DNA of 64,000 bases, taken from NCBI GenBank assembly GCA_049512315.1, contig JBEKXF010000004.1, positions 89,144-153,143 on the forward strand, given 5' to 3'. The translations under genes and the position numbers were made by a program. The notes beneath the pieces are model-generated. The model searched no databases, was not told the DNA's origin, and worked only from the letters and a program-made list of their open reading frames with translations. Positions 29,237 to 52,611 of the stretch are shown here, piece after piece. Source of the stretch: Candidatus Aminicenantales bacterium. GTDB lineage: Bacteria; Acidobacteriota; Aminicenantia; Aminicenantales; Saccharicenantaceae. Each line of letters begins with the position of its first letter. The stretch's first letter is position 1.

Positions 29237-30442
29237 TCACCTTCGTTTCAGCCATTGCAAGGGATCGAGGGCCTTGGTCTTGTACCGGACCTCGAAGTAA
29301 AGGCACTCCCCGTTGAGGGACCCGGAATCCCCGACCAGGGCGACGGGCTGGTCCGCCCGCACCATGTCCCCGACGTTCACCAGGAACTGCGAGCAGTGGC
29401 CGTAGAGGGTGTAGTAGGTCATGCCGTGGTCCAGGATGAGGAGGTTCCCGTAGCCCTGGAAGTAGTCGGCGAAGGCGACCTTGCCCGCGTGGACGGCCAG
29501 GATGAGGGATTTGTCCTTGGCCGGGGCGATCTCGACGCCGTTGTTCATGACGATCGTGTTGAAGCGCGGGTGTCTCTGCAGGCCGAAGGATGTGATGACC
29601 CTGCCTTCCAGGGGCCAGGGAAGCTTCCCGCGCCGCTCGTAGAGGGGGACGAAGGCCGAAGGCAGGGCCCATTGTTCATCGGCGATCTTCTTCATCATGA
29701 CCTGGAGCTGCTCGGCGCTGTCGCGGAGTTCCCGGATGGCCTGCTCGTGGGTCTGCCGGTTCCTCCGGATCTCCTGGACGAGATCGGAGTACTTCCGCTG
29801 CTCCGCCTCGAGCTCCTGCTTCTTGAGGCTGGTTTCACGGAGGATCTCGGCGACGTCCTTCTTTTTCGCGGCCAGGCGGCCCTCGGCCTCGCCAAACTCC
29901 GCAAGGGTCTTGAGGTAGGCCGCGACCGTGTCTTCCTGGTAGCGGGCGAGGAGCGTCAGGCGCTTGCTTTCCGTGGTGTAGGCCTCGAAGTCCCGGGCCT
30001 GGAGCATGAAGTGGAAGAAATTCAGCCGGCCGAACTTGTAGAGCGTCACCAGCGTTTTCTCGATGGCGGCGTTGTCCCTTTCGAGGTTGGCCTTGAGGTC
30101 GCGGACGTTCCCCTGGATCCCGTTGAGCTCGGCCCGGGCCTTCTCCATCTGGACATTCCAGGCCGCGATCTCCCGCTCGACGAGGGCCTTGTTGAGGTTG
30201 ATCCGGGCCAGGTTCGAAAGGACGGACGATTCCTTGAGGGCCTCGGCCTCGATCTTGCCCCGGAGCTCGCTGATCTGCCCGTTGATCTTGGCCAGGCGCT
30301 TCTCGAAGTCCGAGAGGTCCTGTTTCGGAGCGGAGGATTGGGCGAGAAGGAGTCCGAGACCGGCCAGAAGGGCCAGGGTGAGGGCAGGGGCGAGGACGGA
30401 TGAGTGAGTGAGGGGGCCTGCGAGCGGACGATAAACTCTCAT
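29237..30442 (-). CDS. envC: Murein hydrolase activator EnvC (coiled coil + degenerate M23)
   Basis: Long coiled coil; GKLPWPLEG, NNGVEI, GYGNLLILDHG, LYFEVR. Confidence 0.85.
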   Translation of the reverse strand: MRVYRPLAGPLTHSSVLAPALTLALLAGLGLLLAQSSAPKQDLSDFEKRLAKINGQISELRGKIEAEALKESSVLSNLARINLNKALVEREIAAWNVQMEKARAELNGIQGNVRDLKANLERDNAAIEKTLVTLYKFGRLNFFHFMLQARDFEAYTTESKRLTLLARYQEDTVAAYLKTLAEFGEAEGRLAAKKKDVAEILRETSLKKQELEAEQRKYSDLVQEIRRNRQTHEQAIRELRDSAEQLQVMMKKIADEQWALPSAFVPLYERRGKLPWPLEGRVITSFGLQRHPRFNTIVMNNGVEIAPAKDKSLILAVHAGKVAFADYFQGYGNLLILDHGMTYYTLYGHCSQFLVNVGDMVRADQPVALVGDSGSLNGECLYFEVRYKTKALDPLQWLKRR

Positions 30443-30491
30443 TATCTTATTTATAGCATAAATGGGAGACGATGATGAAGACCGCTTCCCT

Positions 30492-30519
30492 TTGCGTTCT
30501 GCTGGAGCTGTGCTATAAT
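30492..30519 (+). promoter_or_regulatory. Extended -10 promoter (element 1 / GT9)
   Basis: TTGCGT-16-TATAAT with TG (TGCTATAAT 30511-30519). Confidence 0.7.
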
Positions 30520-30524
30520 TTAAT

Positions 30525-30610
30525 CAAGTTTTCTTTCGCCGGCTGGAGAAAACTTCAATCCACCAATGAATCATTTTTCCCTTTTTCTGCTGTTCATTAA
30601 AAGAGCCGGC
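30525..30610 (+). ncRNA. Candidate structured RNA, copy 1 (hairpin + pseudoknot)
   Basis: Stem AAGTTTTCT/AGAAAACTT, loop CGCCGGCT, second stem AATGAA/TTCATT, 3' AGCCGGC complementary to loop; related copy at 31918. Confidence 0.6.
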
Positions 30611-30663
30611 ATAGTCGTTGGCGGGCGCGATTAGCGGCGCGACATGACGGACATATCGCTTCA

Positions 30664-31773
30664 ATGAAAACGAAATCGCGGGCGATCCTCTTCCGCATCG
30701 GCGGCCTGGGAGACCTCCTCGCCGCCCTTCCCGCGATCTCCCTCGTGCGCAGGAGTCTTCCCGGGTTCTCTCTGAGCCTTGCTGGACGTCCGGAATACGG
30801 CGGGCTCCTTGAACGGGCGGGGCTCGTGGACGAGGTCCTTTCCTTTGAGGACGCCCGGATGGCGGCGTTATTCGCGGGCGGAGGTCCATCCGGTCCCGGC
30901 GTCGATGAAAAAAGTAAAATCAGTACAAGGAGAACCGCGCCGCTGGACGGTTTTGAGCTGGCCGTGGGCTGGTTGAACCGGCCCGGCCATTGGCCCGCCG
31001 ATGATTGGTGGGCCGGGCAGGGGATCGAGCGAGCGTTATTCGTGCCCTACGAGAACGGCGCTGCCGTGCCAATGAGCCGCTTCTTTTTCGACCGTACTCG
31101 CGACTTTTTGAACACTTACGGAATAAAGGCCCAAGTCGTTAGCGTTTCTTCCAGCGCAGGGGCTGTCGGAGCGTTCGCTGCAAGCCGGGATTTCGCCGCT
31201 AACGCCACTGATATGCCTGCCTTCGATCCGGCCGCGCCCGATCCCGATAGGCTCTTCGACGACTGCGCCCGCCTGCCTCTCCCGGGCGGCCTCAGAAAAA
31301 AAGCCCTCGATGACCTCCGCCTCCGGGAGCTCGGGAAGAGCGAACAGCGGCTCGTCGTCCATCCCGGAAGCGGCGGCCGCGCCAAGCGCTGGCCGCTCCC
31401 GAGCTTCATCGAGGTCATTCGCCGGACCGCCTCGCTCGGCCTGGAGGGAGTCCTCGTCACCGGGGAGGCCGAAGCCGATCTCGAAGCGCCACTCCAGGCA
31501 TTTTCGCTCCCCGCCGGTTGGACGCGAGCCTCGCGTCTTCCGGCCGATACGCTGGCGGGTCTCCTCGCGGGGTCGACTCATTATCTCGGCAACGACTCCG
31601 GGCCAACGCACCTCGCTGCGGCCTGCGGCTCGTCTGTCCTCGCCCTTTTCCGCGAGGATAACCTGCCGGCCTGGCGACCGTTCGGAAGGACGCGCCTTAT
31701 GGCTGCTCCATCTATGCCGGAGATCCCGCTCGACAGCGTCCTGGCCGCGCTTGACGGTTTTTTCGCCTCATAG
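30664..31773 (+). CDS. Glycosyltransferase family 9 (heptosyltransferase-like)
   Basis: RIGGLGDLL, VVHPGSG..AKRWP, YLGNDSGPTHLAAA. Confidence 0.9.
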   Translation: MKTKSRAILFRIGGLGDLLAALPAISLVRRSLPGFSLSLAGRPEYGGLLERAGLVDEVLSFEDARMAALFAGGGPSGPGVDEKSKISTRRTAPLDGFELAVGWLNRPGHWPADDWWAGQGIERALFVPYENGAAVPMSRFFFDRTRDFLNTYGIKAQVVSVSSSAGAVGAFAASRDFAANATDMPAFDPAAPDPDRLFDDCARLPLPGGLRKKALDDLRLRELGKSEQRLVVHPGSGGRAKRWPLPSFIEVIRRTASLGLEGVLVTGEAEADLEAPLQAFSLPAGWTRASRLPADTLAGLLAGSTHYLGNDSGPTHLAAACGSSVLALFREDNLPAWRPFGRTRLMAAPSMPEIPLDSVLAALDGFFAS

Positions 31774-31860
31774 AGATGCCGGCAAGGCGACAATCCTACT
31801 CATCCACCCTGCGCTCGTCATTCCCCACATCTTGTGGCCGCGGCGCCGCCCACAAAAAAA

Positions 31861-31911
31861 GTGTTTTTTCTTGTATTTTTTGTTTGCAATATCTTTCGGC
31901 TCTGGTATAAT
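31861..31911 (+). promoter_or_regulatory. Strong promoter with T-rich UP-like element (element 2)
   Basis: T-rich 31861-31883, TTGCAA (31884-31889)-16-TATAAT (31906-31911), extended TG. Confidence 0.72.
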
Positions 31912-31917
31912 GATACC

Positions 31918-31992
31918 GGCTCTCTTTGGCCGGCTGGAGAGGGCTCCCTCAAAAAACTAATCATCACCCCCCTTTTGCTGACCTCAGCCGGC
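31918..31992 (+). ncRNA. Candidate structured RNA, copy 2 (hairpin + pseudoknot)
   Basis: Stem GGCTCTCT/AGAGGGCT, loop GGCCGGCT, AATCA...CCCTTTT..GCTG, 3' AGCCGGC; same architecture as copy 1. Confidence 0.6.
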
Positions 31993-32052
31993 ACCTCACC
32001 CCCCCCCCGGGTGCCTCGCGCACAAATCCGCGTTTTCCGAGCCGCGCGTTTG

Positions 32053-32061
32053 TGATATGAT
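32053..32061 (+). promoter_or_regulatory. Extended -10 for the 32091 gene
   Basis: TGATATGAT about 30 nt upstream of ATG. Confidence 0.5.
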
Positions 32062-32090
32062 ACCGGCGAAATCCCCGGAGCTGGACAAAG

Positions 32091-32555
32091 ATGGGAAATA
32101 AAGACTGGAAGACGGAACTGAAGAATCATTTCGAGAACATGCGCATCCTGGAAAAATGCCAGGCGGAAACGCTCATCCACTTCGAGCAGTTCTGCGAGTT
32201 CATCGTCGAGCCCGCCTTCGAAGCGCTCGTGGAAGAGATCGCTTCGTTCGGCGTGAAAGCCCGGATCCAGAAAGCGAAGGGCCGCGACATCCGCCTCAGC
32301 CTTTCTTTTCCCGGCCGCAAGGACGAGCAGTTCCACTACAAGATCTCGATCCCCAGCAACTCGGTCGAGCTCCGGCTGGCCCTGGTGACCAAGGGGCGGA
32401 AGAACCTGACGTCGGACTACAAGACAACGGAAGAGGCGTTCATGCCGGACCTGAGCCCCGCCGAAGTCCTCAAGCTGACCAAGGACGACGTCATCCTCGA
32501 CGTCCTCGAGCATTACCGCAACTTCAGCTACGAAGCCCTGACCTCGCCCGATTGA
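32091..32555 (+). CDS. Hypothetical protein (154 aa)
   Basis: Host-like codon usage, SD-like GGAG upstream; no family recognised. Confidence 0.75.
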   Translation: MGNKDWKTELKNHFENMRILEKCQAETLIHFEQFCEFIVEPAFEALVEEIASFGVKARIQKAKGRDIRLSLSFPGRKDEQFHYKISIPSNSVELRLALVTKGRKNLTSDYKTTEEAFMPDLSPAEVLKLTKDDVILDVLEHYRNFSYEALTSPD

Positions 32556-42635: not shown

Positions 42636-42893
42636 CCCTCCTTGGGTGCCATAGTAAAAATAGCAAAATGAGGAGCGCTTGACAAGGGCTTTTGCAGCCG
42701 GCTAAAAAACCCGTTATCGCTTCCCCGTTGGAAGAAACCACTAGGATGCCCAAGCCCGAGGTTGCCGGTCGACCGGGACATTAGATATCAGGCAGCATAT
42801 TCTGAAGGAAAGCGCTCCGTCCGTCATTGACATTCTTCGTGGGGCGGGTGCTGAATTCGGCTGCGTGATTCTAATCAGCTTCCCTGACGCGGC

Positions 42894-49632: not shown

Positions 49633-52611
49633 TCAGGATTTCCTCCGCCGATATGTCACGATGGCCAGGACGGCAATCATGCTAATCCCGAGAACGCCAG
49701 CCATTATCATAATGAGATTGAGGCCTCCGGAATATATTCGAGAGTCCGTCTTTCCGTTGATAACGAATCCTGCCCAGTAATAAGGATGGGACAGTGTCCT
49801 AGAACGGATCATGTCAAGTTTGGCATTCCGTAACGCTCCCATCAATGATTCACCACCCCGGATGTGTCGATAAAACCCTTCCATGAGGAGTGAGGTGGCT
49901 TGGTCATTCACGGCCCAAAGACTCATGAGGACAGATGATGAGCCGGCATAGAAAAAAGCCCGACTCAGCCCTTCGATTCCTTCACCCCTGACAAATTGGC
50001 CCAGTCCGGTCTGGCACGCGGACAACGTTACGAGTTCGGCGTTCATCTTGAGGTTATAAATATCTCTTGCTTGGAGAAGCCCTTCCCCGGCTTGGTTTTT
50101 ATTGAACGAGAGGAGGATGGCCGATCGGGCCGGCTTCTTGTCATCGATCACACTATGAGCCGCGAAATGGATGATCCTGTAGTCCGTTAATGGATTGGAT
50201 TTCAGCCAACGCTCTGTCGCATCTTGTTTTTCCAGCACCGTGACTCTGTTGGGTGGGAAAAGCTGAGAGATCCTCTCGATCTCCGACGCGGAATACTTGA
50301 GCGGGGAGAGTGAGACGCCAAAAGAAGAGCCGGAACCATAAAGAATATCAAGGTCGGGGACGACGGCGGTTCCCCCCTTGCCTATGTTGTACTCGGTATC
50401 TCCTATGGCCAGAAGGTCTTTGTGCGGCCTGGAACCCTTCTGGTGTCTTCGACTTAGAAATCTGAGCGATGAGAGGGAGGGAACATAGCCGATCTGGAAT
50501 TCCCGGATTAACCAGGAGCGGGGTTCATGATTCGTGCGCAGAGTCTCGAACGGAAGGAGATTCAGGATGTCATCTGGAACAAAAACAATCCTCTTTAACC
50601 CCGGCTCGATCCCCGGGGATACGAGCTCTTGATAGAGTTCCTGGCCGAGGTGGAAATCCCTATTTTGACGGTCAGAGATGGCCTTACGGTATTCGATAAC
50701 CTGCTGCTGGATAACCTTCCTTGAGGGGAGCTTAAAGATTCTTAGCCCCTTATGAAAAACCACAAAAGCGTAGGACGCCTCTTTTCCGAGCGAATAGGCG
50801 AAGTAGGCTTCGTCGGGGGCTAGCAGTTCTTTCCGGACTTCCTCGTACGTGATGACCTTCGGATACTTCAGGTCGGCATACGCGGGGCTCGACATCCGAA
50901 TTTCCCGCCTCAAGGTTTCGAGTTGGTCTTCCAAGGACTTGATCTGGCCCGAAATCGTTTCCTTGCCCTCGGGGGAATCATCCGCGGACAAAAGCTTGCT
51001 GTAGGCTTTTGAGATGTTTCTCATAGCTTCTTTTTCGCGGTTTGCCAGGATAGGATTGATCCCTTGTGAAACGTCGACCTCAGCAACCTCAAGGCTGTCA
51101 AGGAAAGCCCGGGCCTTGCCTCTTTCCAGGTAATTAAACGCCTCCTTATCGTAACCCTTGTTGGGATCCATTTTCTGAAGCGTGACCAAAAGGTCAATGA
51201 GGTTCTGGTAAACCTCAATTCGTTTATCTGTGCCGAAATAACTCGCTTTGAGATCTTCGATGGTTATCGAAGATCTGATATGTTCGATTATGGAAATTGA
51301 GGTCTTATAATATTCTAATGCAGCCTGGTATTTTTTTTGTATCGAAAAAGTATTTGCGCTTTCATAGAATACCTCCCAGAGTAATTGTCCGTCTCGGCTC
51401 TTATTTGCCACATTAATTGCCAACTTGAAATATTCTAACGATTCATCGAATTTGCCAATTTTAGAATTGATGATGCCCAGATTATTTAGTATCCTGCCTA
51501 TTTTTTCAGTGTCCCGCTCATTTTGTGCGAGGTTATATGCTCTCCTAAAATAGCCAAGTGCATCGAAATATCGTTCTTTGTCAAAAAGCAATGAGCCAAT
51601 GTTATTAAAGACAGCTATAGTTAGGCGTGAATCTCCAAATTCATTTATTAATGCCAAACTTGATTTGAAATCTGTCAGGGCATTGCTAAAATCTTCTTGA
51701 CTGTTCGAAATCAACCCCCTTTTTCTTAAGATAATCCCCCTGTTGATATAATCAATTGATATTTGTCTGGCGTCCCTCAATTTTTCATCTATGGCAAGCG
51801 AACGAGTGACACAATCTAACGCTTTGTCGTAGTCTCCAAGTTCTTGGTAGATCACCCCTAAATTACTTAGTGAGTCAGTTTCTCCCTGTAGGTTATTTAT
51901 TCCTCTTGTTATCTGGTCGGCTTGCTCGCAAGATCGAAGGGCCTTGGAATAATTCTCTAGTTTTATAAAATATATTCCAATATTATTTAGGCAATTGCTG
52001 GCTTCTCTCATATTGTTTGTTTGTTGTGCTAAGGAAAGCGCTTCTTTATTCAGAGAATAGAATTTCGAATAATCGCCAGTATCCCAGAAGATAAGACTAA
52101 GTTGTCTCTCACACTTGATAACATGATCCGGACTATTAATGCTCTTAGCAATTTCGATTGCATTAACAAAGCATTTAGCGCCTTTTTCATAATTTGACTC
52201 AGATCTGTGCTGTTTTCCTTCCTGATAAAGGTTGTGAATTTCTATCGAACTTAAGATAAAAACGTTGGTGACTTTCTCTTCCAGCCTCTTGGCGAGAGGC
52301 AAGGCTTTATCAAAAAAGAGTTTGGAGCTATTTAAGTCACCGACATTCCAATAAAGAATCCCTAATTCCCTATAACAACTCAATTCAGCTCCGATATCAG
52401 AAGTCTTCTTTATATTCGATAGTGCATTGATATTAGTCTCGATCGCTTTTTGATAATTGCCCTTAATTCTATATCCTAACGCTTCTTTCATCTCTGCATA
52501 CGGGGACGATCTTTCTTGGTTATTTACATTCCGCCCCGGGTTGGCAAAAAAAACCGTCGCATTAAAAAAAATAAAGACGGCCACCCAAATCTTCAGATAA
52601 ATCGCTCTCAA
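49633..52611 (-). CDS. Exported TPR-CHAT caspase-like protease 2 with C-terminal TM anchor
   Basis: TTG start, signal peptide; TPRs; ERGKARAFLD, FVPDDILNLLPFETL, IIHFAAHS, TLSACQTG, HPYYWAGFV; TM + RRRKS. Confidence 0.93.
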   Translation of the reverse strand: MRAIYLKIWVAVFIFFNATVFFANPGRNVNNQERSSPYAEMKEALGYRIKGNYQKAIETNINALSNIKKTSDIGAELSCYRELGILYWNVGDLNSSKLFFDKALPLAKRLEEKVTNVFILSSIEIHNLYQEGKQHRSESNYEKGAKCFVNAIEIAKSINSPDHVIKCERQLSLIFWDTGDYSKFYSLNKEALSLAQQTNNMREASNCLNNIGIYFIKLENYSKALRSCEQADQITRGINNLQGETDSLSNLGVIYQELGDYDKALDCVTRSLAIDEKLRDARQISIDYINRGIILRKRGLISNSQEDFSNALTDFKSSLALINEFGDSRLTIAVFNNIGSLLFDKERYFDALGYFRRAYNLAQNERDTEKIGRILNNLGIINSKIGKFDESLEYFKLAINVANKSRDGQLLWEVFYESANTFSIQKKYQAALEYYKTSISIIEHIRSSITIEDLKASYFGTDKRIEVYQNLIDLLVTLQKMDPNKGYDKEAFNYLERGKARAFLDSLEVAEVDVSQGINPILANREKEAMRNISKAYSKLLSADDSPEGKETISGQIKSLEDQLETLRREIRMSSPAYADLKYPKVITYEEVRKELLAPDEAYFAYSLGKEASYAFVVFHKGLRIFKLPSRKVIQQQVIEYRKAISDRQNRDFHLGQELYQELVSPGIEPGLKRIVFVPDDILNLLPFETLRTNHEPRSWLIREFQIGYVPSLSSLRFLSRRHQKGSRPHKDLLAIGDTEYNIGKGGTAVVPDLDILYGSGSSFGVSLSPLKYSASEIERISQLFPPNRVTVLEKQDATERWLKSNPLTDYRIIHFAAHSVIDDKKPARSAILLSFNKNQAGEGLLQARDIYNLKMNAELVTLSACQTGLGQFVRGEGIEGLSRAFFYAGSSSVLMSLWAVNDQATSLLMEGFYRHIRGGESLMGALRNAKLDMIRSRTLSHPYYWAGFVINGKTDSRIYSGGLNLIMIMAGVLGISMIAVLAIVTYRRRKS

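Follow-up and report, generated by a model that had tools for sequence, protein, structure and literature searches.

On the plus strand of a 64,000-nucleotide (nt) stretch of contig JBEKXF010000004.1, from a Candidatus Aminicenantales bacterium (the whole stretch is called the window below), lie two similar elements, a type B copy at 30526-30610 (copy 1) and a type A copy at 31918-31992 (copy 2). Are they copies of one structured RNA, has that RNA been described before, and does it serve the genes behind it or act on its own? An earlier account made from the letters alone (the sequence-only reading) had taken them for an undescribed riboswitch or small RNA (sRNA). Comparison with homologues shows that the two elements are paralogues of a new lineage-specific structured RNA family of Candidatus Aminicenantes. 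The family is a taxon-restricted structured small RNA, new in itself and of a familiar sort.

The two copies and their homologues

A pairwise alignment confirms that copies 1 and 2 share sequence blocks, as had been proposed; these are TCTTTnGCCGGCTGGAGA, AATCAT, CCCTTTT, GCTG and AGCCGGC. The covariance model built from homologues recovers both in the window, copy 2 at 91.7 bits (E 6.8e-24) and copy 1 at 59.4 bits (E 5.7e-15). In the 64 kb there are exactly two occurrences of the 18-mer TCTTTNGCCGGCTGGAGA. With up to three mismatches it occurs six times, against a mean of 0.33 in shuffled sequences, none of which reaches six.

Homologues of the copies, on whose existence the proposal depended, are plentiful and covary. 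One genome per prokaryotic species was scanned with the pattern CTTTNGCCGGCTGGAG-N35-65-AGCCGGC, and the scan returned 99 stretches, 82 of them clearly homologous and 17 chance matches in unrelated GC-rich genomes. The 82 homologues come nearly all from metagenome-assembled genomes (MAGs) named Candidatus Aminicenantes, Aminicenantales or Acidobacteriota, or labelled uninformatively. A profile hidden Markov model counts 243 or more family members with scores of 40 bits and above, spread over 218 public loci. These loci nearly all belong to Candidatus Aminicenantes MAGs or unlabelled metagenome contigs, and many of those fetched hold a second copy according to the family covariance model. No copy was found on IMG/VR viral contigs.

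No family of Rfam 15 (4227 models) reaches its gathering score in the window, a search of 30400-32150 at E<=10 gave nothing relevant, and in 15 further element-bearing loci tRNA genes were the sole Rfam matches. In the literature we found neither a description of this RNA family nor any regulatory RNA described for Aminicenantes. With no Rfam match and no paper to set against it, the claim that the family is undescribed stands. The earlier remark that the conserved nucleotides of the fluoride riboswitch are missing is likewise upheld, as its model (RF01734) gives no match at gathering score or at E<=10.

Some labels in the collection differ. The 3.3-kb contig DATKXS010000076.1 (L045), binned as Candidatus Desulfaltia (Thermodesulfobacteriota), carries the subtype B element, a glycosyltransferase family 9 (GT9) gene and p154, the gene of a 154-amino-acid protein, arranged as in Aminicenantes. 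Since the synteny is identical to that of Aminicenantes loci, the label is probably a binning error. Many further MAGs with the element bear the label 'uncultured Eubacteriales'.

Structure, promoter and long loop

The RNA begins with a hairpin of 8-9 bp (P1), which covaries and has G-U pairs in the set from genomes. Because of these G-U pairs, the plus strand can be assigned as the RNA strand. A second helix (P2) joins eight bases of the P1 loop to a segment 45-60 nt downstream. The genome set was unusable for testing P2, because its search pattern had imposed both P2 strands. P2 was tested by a scan of metagenome contigs with CTCTTT-N9-GAGAG-N20-50-CCCCTTTTGCTGA, which leaves both P2 strands free and yielded at least 119 loci. 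Among the 119 metagenome matches listed, the loop and tail 8-mers are GCCGGCUG/CAGCCGGC in 67 and GCGGGCUG/CAGCCCGC in 31, while GCCGGGUG/CACCCGGC, ACCGGCUG/CAGCCGGU, GCCGGUCG/CGACCGGC and GCCGGUUG/CAACCGGC occur once each; a few half-changed P2 intermediates are also present.

Both helices are borne out in an alignment of 150 sequences. Changes on both sides of a pair occur at seven of nine P1 pairs, with 88.5% of cells paired, and at four of eight P2 pairs, with 99.3% paired. No shuffle attains the values observed for P1 or P2, and partner columns slid out of register pair in just 37-48%. A mutual-information scan places the P2 pair 16/99 and the P1 pairs 5/28, 7/26 and 4/29 among the top Watson-Crick-consistent pairs. 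The covariation of the outer stem, first noticed between the two copies, therefore extends to the family. The 7-bp pseudoknot proposed between the loop and the 3' end gains compensatory changes that no search pattern imposed, but the family consensus of this helix is 8 bp; seven is the count of copy 1, where the eighth position is a G-G mismatch. The further idea that the GCCGGC loop mediates kissing dimers between copies finds no support, because what is conserved is complementarity between loop and tail and not self-complementarity: the loop has the non-palindromic GCGGGC in 34 of the 119 metagenome matches listed, 31 of which carry the tail GCCCGC.

The geometry is strict at the 5' side. 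In every aligned sequence the P1 loop is 12 nt long (3 nt, the 8-nt P2 strand and 1 nt), and columns 1-31 are free of gaps. The pseudoknot loops measure 3 nt (L1), 1 nt (L2) and 39-60 nt (L3), and by the general rules for pseudoknot loop lengths both helices should be able to coexist. With both helices backed by covariation, the comparative data identify the RNA as a classical H-type pseudoknot. Calculated folding energies, -16 to -19 kcal/mol for the P2 duplex and about -21 kcal/mol for the nested minimum, leave thermodynamic folding undecided between the pseudoknot and the nested form. Sequence conservation stops at the last P2 base, and the functional unit can for this reason be put at about 75-90 nt.

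Other pairings were considered and set aside. A mini-hairpin in place of P2 (P3, GCUG-loop-CAGC) was rejected, as its partner does not track the P2 covariation in L210, L208 and L111. A helix between the purine strand of P1 and the pyrimidine tract, which RNAalifold prefers, is possible in subtypes A and B (the subtypes are described below); as a feature of the family it was rejected, since 77 of the 150 sequences, mostly of subtype C, are unpaired at one of its positions. For a pyrimidine-motif triple helix of L3 on P1 the sequences are unsuited, judged by eye.

Upstream of the RNA, the profile of 215 distinct upstream regions aligned on the first loop base shows a TATAAT that ends 6 nt before the first P1 base and a TTG -35 element 17 nt upstream of the -10 box. 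About half of the regions have TG ahead of the -10 box, and 203 have a purine as the first P1 base. Transcription is thus predicted to begin at the first base of P1, because the TATAAT lies 6 nt ahead of it and that base is a purine. In the window the extended -10 boxes of both copies (TGCTATAAT and TGGTATAAT) end 6 nt ahead of P1, which agrees with the start about 6 nt after TGnTATAAT given by the sequence-only reading and now proves to be a conserved placement. The motif TGnTATAAT itself has four sites in the window against 0.19 expected, and a promoter scan scored the copy 2 promoter at 10 of 12 matches with the TG present. Where subtypes B and A stand in tandem, each copy has its own TTGAtt-17-TATAAT promoter, and a complete promoter lies between B and A. 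The promoter sequences indicate that every copy has a near-consensus sigma-70 promoter of its own, from which it is transcribed.

L3 contains hardly any G, and folding predictions leave it unstructured; folded alone, it gives 0.0 kcal/mol in copy 2 and -1.9 kcal/mol in copy 1. It holds the most conserved unpaired stretch of the family, which reads AAUCAUCACCCCCCUUUUGCUGA in A and C copies and AUCAUUUU-CCCUUUUCUGCUG in B copies, with a nearly invariant core AUCAUCA-CCCCCCUUUUGCUGA. This conservation is strong, because the neighbouring proteins are merely 30-60% identical between element-bearing genomes. Coding potential was judged from alignments read by eye, in which the L3 of the subtype A and C copies examined has no start codon and a short frame in copy 1 is not conserved.

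Gene context and function

The family divides into subtypes A, B and C, which differ in their surroundings. Subtype A (P1 GGCUCUCU/AGAGGGCU), to which copy 2 belongs, always lies 55-182 nt upstream of a p154 homologue. Subtype B (P1 AAGUUUUCU/AGAAAACUU), to which copy 1 belongs, lies upstream of GT9, its conserved downstream neighbour in many loci, or 57-150 nt directly ahead of a subtype A element. Subtype C has an additional 3-bp mini-hairpin within the long loop. Its contexts vary and show no dominant neighbour (the largest neighbour cluster comprises 11 loci, for 96 subtype C instances), its copies do not adjoin a p154 homologue, and 3 of the 15 loci on which Rfam was run have a convergent tRNA gene adjoining the RNA. 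Listing the downstream genes, which the earlier account had named as a check, thus gives GT9 for subtype B, p154 for subtype A and no conserved neighbour for subtype C. These genes have nothing obvious in common.

Two minor observations concern subtypes B and C. Degenerate or partial subtype B copies occur at L041:2385-2476, L124:1266-1357, L214:361-452, L063:6465-6538 and L053:1834-1925. In each the P1 hairpin or the P2 loop strand is gone (e.g. AGGCGGCUGG), the pyrimidine tract and the CAGCCGGC tail being retained; such copies may be decaying paralogues. About 20-30 nt downstream of subtype C, a 10-bp palindrome ATTGYRCAAT (ATTGCGCAAT, ATTGTACAAT, ATTGTGCAAT) recurs after an A-run (in L025, L057, L084, L113, L121, L064, L168, L186, L188, L006 and others), in flanks that are otherwise dissimilar; it may be an operator or a piece of the following promoter.

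The protein p154 is as restricted as the RNA. Its homologues fall into 85 clusters among 5.8 billion proteins; their length is about 154 amino acids in nearly every case, and the few clusters with a source name are all from Aminicenantales or Acidobacteriota. It belongs to no family in Pfam, NCBIfam or PADLOC and has no sequence match in the PDB. The AlphaFold2 model (predicted local distance difference test score 93) consists of a long helix, a five-stranded sheet and a second helix; the best match in a fold search of the PDB, at E 0.08, is an unrelated protein, and the modelled structure may be a new fold. A motif TRTGnTAnnAT precedes p154 in 92 of 93 subtype A loci, with no clear -35 element. 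It lies mostly 26-30 nt before the p154 ATG (median 29), yet 32-153 nt from the RNA.

An independent small RNA fits the gene context better than a riboswitch does, because p154 has its own promoter, the tandem copies are separately promoted and subtype C has no conserved neighbour. We favour, with about even confidence, the reading that the RNA is an independent, abundantly made sRNA that acts in trans. The pseudoknot would close and protect both RNA ends and would display the unstructured C/U-rich L3 to a partner. Preferably, L3 would pair with G-rich mRNA segments such as ribosome-binding regions, and a conserved protein that binds L3 has almost the same likelihood. At loci whose next gene begins 12-30 nt behind P2, read-through would turn the same RNA into a 5' leader. 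Of the two possibilities named by the sequence-only reading, riboswitch or sRNA, the context thus prefers the second, but in some loci the RNA may serve as a 5' leader.

Two groups of known sRNAs come close in kind. Acido-1, Chlorobi-1 and Bacteroidales-1 are reportedly lineage-restricted orphan sRNA motifs that came from the comparative genomics of Weinberg et al. in 2010. Like them, the present family is confined to one phylum or class and combines a strong promoter of its own with variable context, covarying structure and unknown function. It differs in sequence and fold (none of those Rfam models matches) and in having two syntenic paralogues beside a free-standing subtype. The C-rich-loop trans-acting sRNAs of Firmicutes, of the RsaE/RoxS type, resemble it in that a stable scaffold presents an unstructured C-rich segment, for which pairing with G-rich ribosome-binding regions is proposed. 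In contrast to these, it shows no homology, its scaffold is a pseudoknot rather than hairpins plus a terminator, and the window yielded no target for its loop.

Several observations weigh against the trans-acting sRNA. About 25 nearly invariant unpaired bases exceed a typical sRNA seed and come nearer to ligand- or protein-binding RNAs. That subtype A always adjoins p154, and subtype B often GT9, could mean a cis or local function, and a gene 12-30 nt past P2 in some loci leaves no room for a further promoter. A canonical terminator after the RNA is not conserved across the family: hairpin-plus-U terminators follow only 12 of 84 A, 4 of 41 B and 6 of 83 C copies. In the window, sites complementary to L3 occur at chance level without enrichment, and none of 43 start regions stood out in an RNAduplex scan, both being weak tests that cover 64 kb only.

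The proximity of some genes and the invariant unpaired bases in an H-type pseudoknot, as in small riboswitch aptamers, could instead mean that the RNA is a cis-acting riboswitch or leader, in which the pseudoknot is the aptamer or sensor and P2 controls termination or translation of GT9, p154 and others. GT9 starts 12-25 nt past the P2 of subtype B in L091, L088 and L073, and one and the same gene starts about 25 nt past the P2 of subtype C in L116, L133, L167 and L196. Moreover, the 9 nt that directly follow P2 form a U-rich stretch in 44% of the B copies and 36% of the C copies; in L073 this stretch, CAGCCGGCACUUUUUU, stands immediately ahead of the GT9 ribosome-binding site. Subtype A, however, has no such U-tract after P2 (7% of copies are U-rich there), the downstream genes are functionally unrelated, and most subtype C copies have no conserved one. 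The promoter motif of p154 in 92 of 93 loci and the full promoter between B and A in tandem loci also speak against a leader, as does the failure in subtype C of the alternative helix that might have served as the switch. The fluoride (crcB, RF01734), SAM-II (RF00521) and preQ1-II (RF01054) riboswitches are similar in that they are small, lie at the transcript start, pair a 5' hairpin loop with a downstream segment and contain many conserved unpaired bases. Unlike them, the present RNA matches no known riboswitch model in Rfam, those three included even at E<=10, its L3 is 39-60 nt against a few to about 20 nt, and it has no coherent regulated gene set, its downstream genes often being self-promoted. 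A consistent position in the 5' untranslated region of functionally coherent genes was not seen among the loci compared, nor was an association with crcB or eriC-F: the neighbours in the window are GT9 and p154, and contexts elsewhere are unrelated. On balance we consider a cis-regulatory or riboswitch role unlikely, yet conceivable at the loci where a gene follows directly. A combined version, in which P2 is itself the regulatory helix of a new riboswitch or sensor class, is rather improbable; here P2, forming in response to a ligand or signal, would stop transcription or mask the start site a few bases further on, giving a stable small RNA in one state and the full-length mRNA of GT9 or other genes in the other, so that the RNA would be both sRNA and leader, built on a pseudoknot terminator. 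Should some members of the family act in cis, they would represent a new class of regulatory RNA.

That some 25 unpaired bases are fixed while the helices covary, next to neighbour proteins of 30-60% identity, would equally suit a protein-binding RNA (a sponge or ribonucleoprotein scaffold), in which a conserved protein, either a binder of single-stranded pyrimidines or, in the lineages with subtype A, p154, would recognise the invariant bases of loop and junction. The strict linkage of subtype A to p154, and the confinement of p154 to the same lineage, point in this direction, but p154 has no recognisable RNA-binding family or fold and subtype C copies have no adjoining p154 homologue; we hold this reading to be doubtful. 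A type III toxin-antitoxin pair, with the pseudoknotted RNA as antitoxin to a small toxin p154, is suggested by the position of the RNA directly upstream of a small protein gene, a resemblance to ToxI and CptI, and by the two RNA units ahead of that gene in tandem loci. It is nevertheless very unlikely: unlike those systems, the locus has no ToxN-like protein and no tandem short-repeat array (Tandem Repeats Finder, 30300-32300), the RNAs and the protein gene are separately promoted, and the arrangement is syntenic and vertically inherited across the class with no copy on viral contigs. To this are added the lack of PADLOC and PDB matches of p154 noted above and the presence of subtype C without p154. 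A feature of the DNA, such as operator palindromes near a promoter, or mere chance resemblance, could be read from the palindrome GCCGGC that occurs twice and close to the promoter, and is scarcely credible. Compensatory changes keep RNA pairing, including G-U pairs valid on the plus strand only, a third of the subtype C copies among the metagenome matches listed have lost the palindrome and kept the complementarity of loop and tail, and more than 240 instances exist; the covariation effectively refutes this reading.

Aminicenantes (OP8) are uncultured bacteria that abound in sediments, peat and aquifers. The conservation of the RNA is stronger than that of the proteins of the adjoining genes. 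Because of this, and because its promoter is near-consensus and both helices are comparatively supported, it probably ranks with the most abundant and most important sRNAs of this lineage. As a structural target the family is well defined, being a compact H-type pseudoknot with a long, unstructured C/U-rich loop on display; as the organisms are uncultured, functional work would call for in vitro experiments or a heterologous host.

Mapped features and minor observations

Table 1. Features of the two RNA copies and of the adjoining genes in the window
Feature	Position	Strand	Description
Copy 1 promoter	30491-30519	+	-35-like TTTGCG 30491-30496, 17-nt spacer, extended -10 TGCTATAAT 30511-30519
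RNA copy 1, subtype B	30526-30610	+	predicted +1 (A30526) to end of P2 3' strand; homologue alignment
Copy 1 P1 hairpin	30526-30555	+	AAGUUUUCU 30526-30534 with AGAAAACUU 30547-30555
Copy 1 P1 loop, 12 nt	30535-30546	+	holds P2 5' strand GCCGGCU(G) 30538-30545
Copy 1 loop L3, 48 nt	30556-30603	+	AAUCAU, then pyrimidine tract UUUUUCCCUUUUUCUGCUG; predicted nearly unstructured
Copy 1 P2 3' strand	30604-30610	+	AGCCGGC; 7 bp with 30538-30544
GT9 gene (heptosyltransferase-like)	30664-31773	+	Pfam PF01075, E 3.5e-13; 53 nt after copy 1
Copy 2 promoter	31883-31911	+	-35 TTTGCA/TTGCAA, 16-17 nt spacer, extended -10 TGGTATAAT 31903-31911
RNA copy 2, subtype A	31918-31992	+	predicted +1 (G31918) to end of P2 3' strand
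Copy 2 P1 hairpin	31918-31945	+	GGCUCUCU 31918-31925 with AGAGGGCU 31938-31945; two G-U pairs
Copy 2 P1 loop, 12 nt	31926-31937	+	holds P2 5' strand GCCGGCUG 31929-31936
Copy 2 loop L3, 39 nt	31946-31984	+	near-invariant AAUCAUCACCCCCCUUUUGCUGA 31959-31981; almost no G; predicted unstructured
Copy 2 P2 3' strand	31985-31992	+	CAGCCGGC; 8 bp with GCCGGCUG 31929-31936
First hairpin after copy 2	31990-32015	+	GGCACC...GGGUGCC; sequence and folds
Second hairpin after copy 2	32021-32054	+	CACAAAUCCGCG...CGCGCGUUUGUG; sequence and folds
p154 promoter	32051-32061	+	extended -10 TGTGATATGAT, 29 nt ahead of ATG
p154 gene, 154 amino acids	32091-32555	+	constant downstream neighbour of subtype A

Against the NCBIfam heptosyltransferase models, the GT9 protein of the window gives matches only below their cut-offs (Table 1). 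The two hairpins that follow copy 2 are possibly 3'-end or terminator structures, as far as the predicted folds suggest. Since the p154 promoter overlaps the 3' arm of the second hairpin, termination of the RNA and initiation at p154 may interfere mutually in the window.

A third copy was not found in the window with the family covariance model, whose next match scores just 19.7 bits. That match, at 42644-42715 (-), was rejected, as it is merely a hairpin with a similar loop. An AT-rich stretch in GC-rich surroundings at 51640-51940 contains TGATATAAT (51744-51752) and a CAACCCCCTTTTTC tract, and scores 8.8 bits with the family model, which is chance level. The hairpin of the 19.7-bit match, GGGUUUUUU-AGCCGGCUGC-AAAAGCCC at 42690-42716 (-), holds in its loop AGCCGGCUG, also found in the P1 loop of the RNA family, with the remainder of the element missing. 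It sits between the end of a gene and a promoter-like TTGTCA...TATTTT and is probably a terminator.

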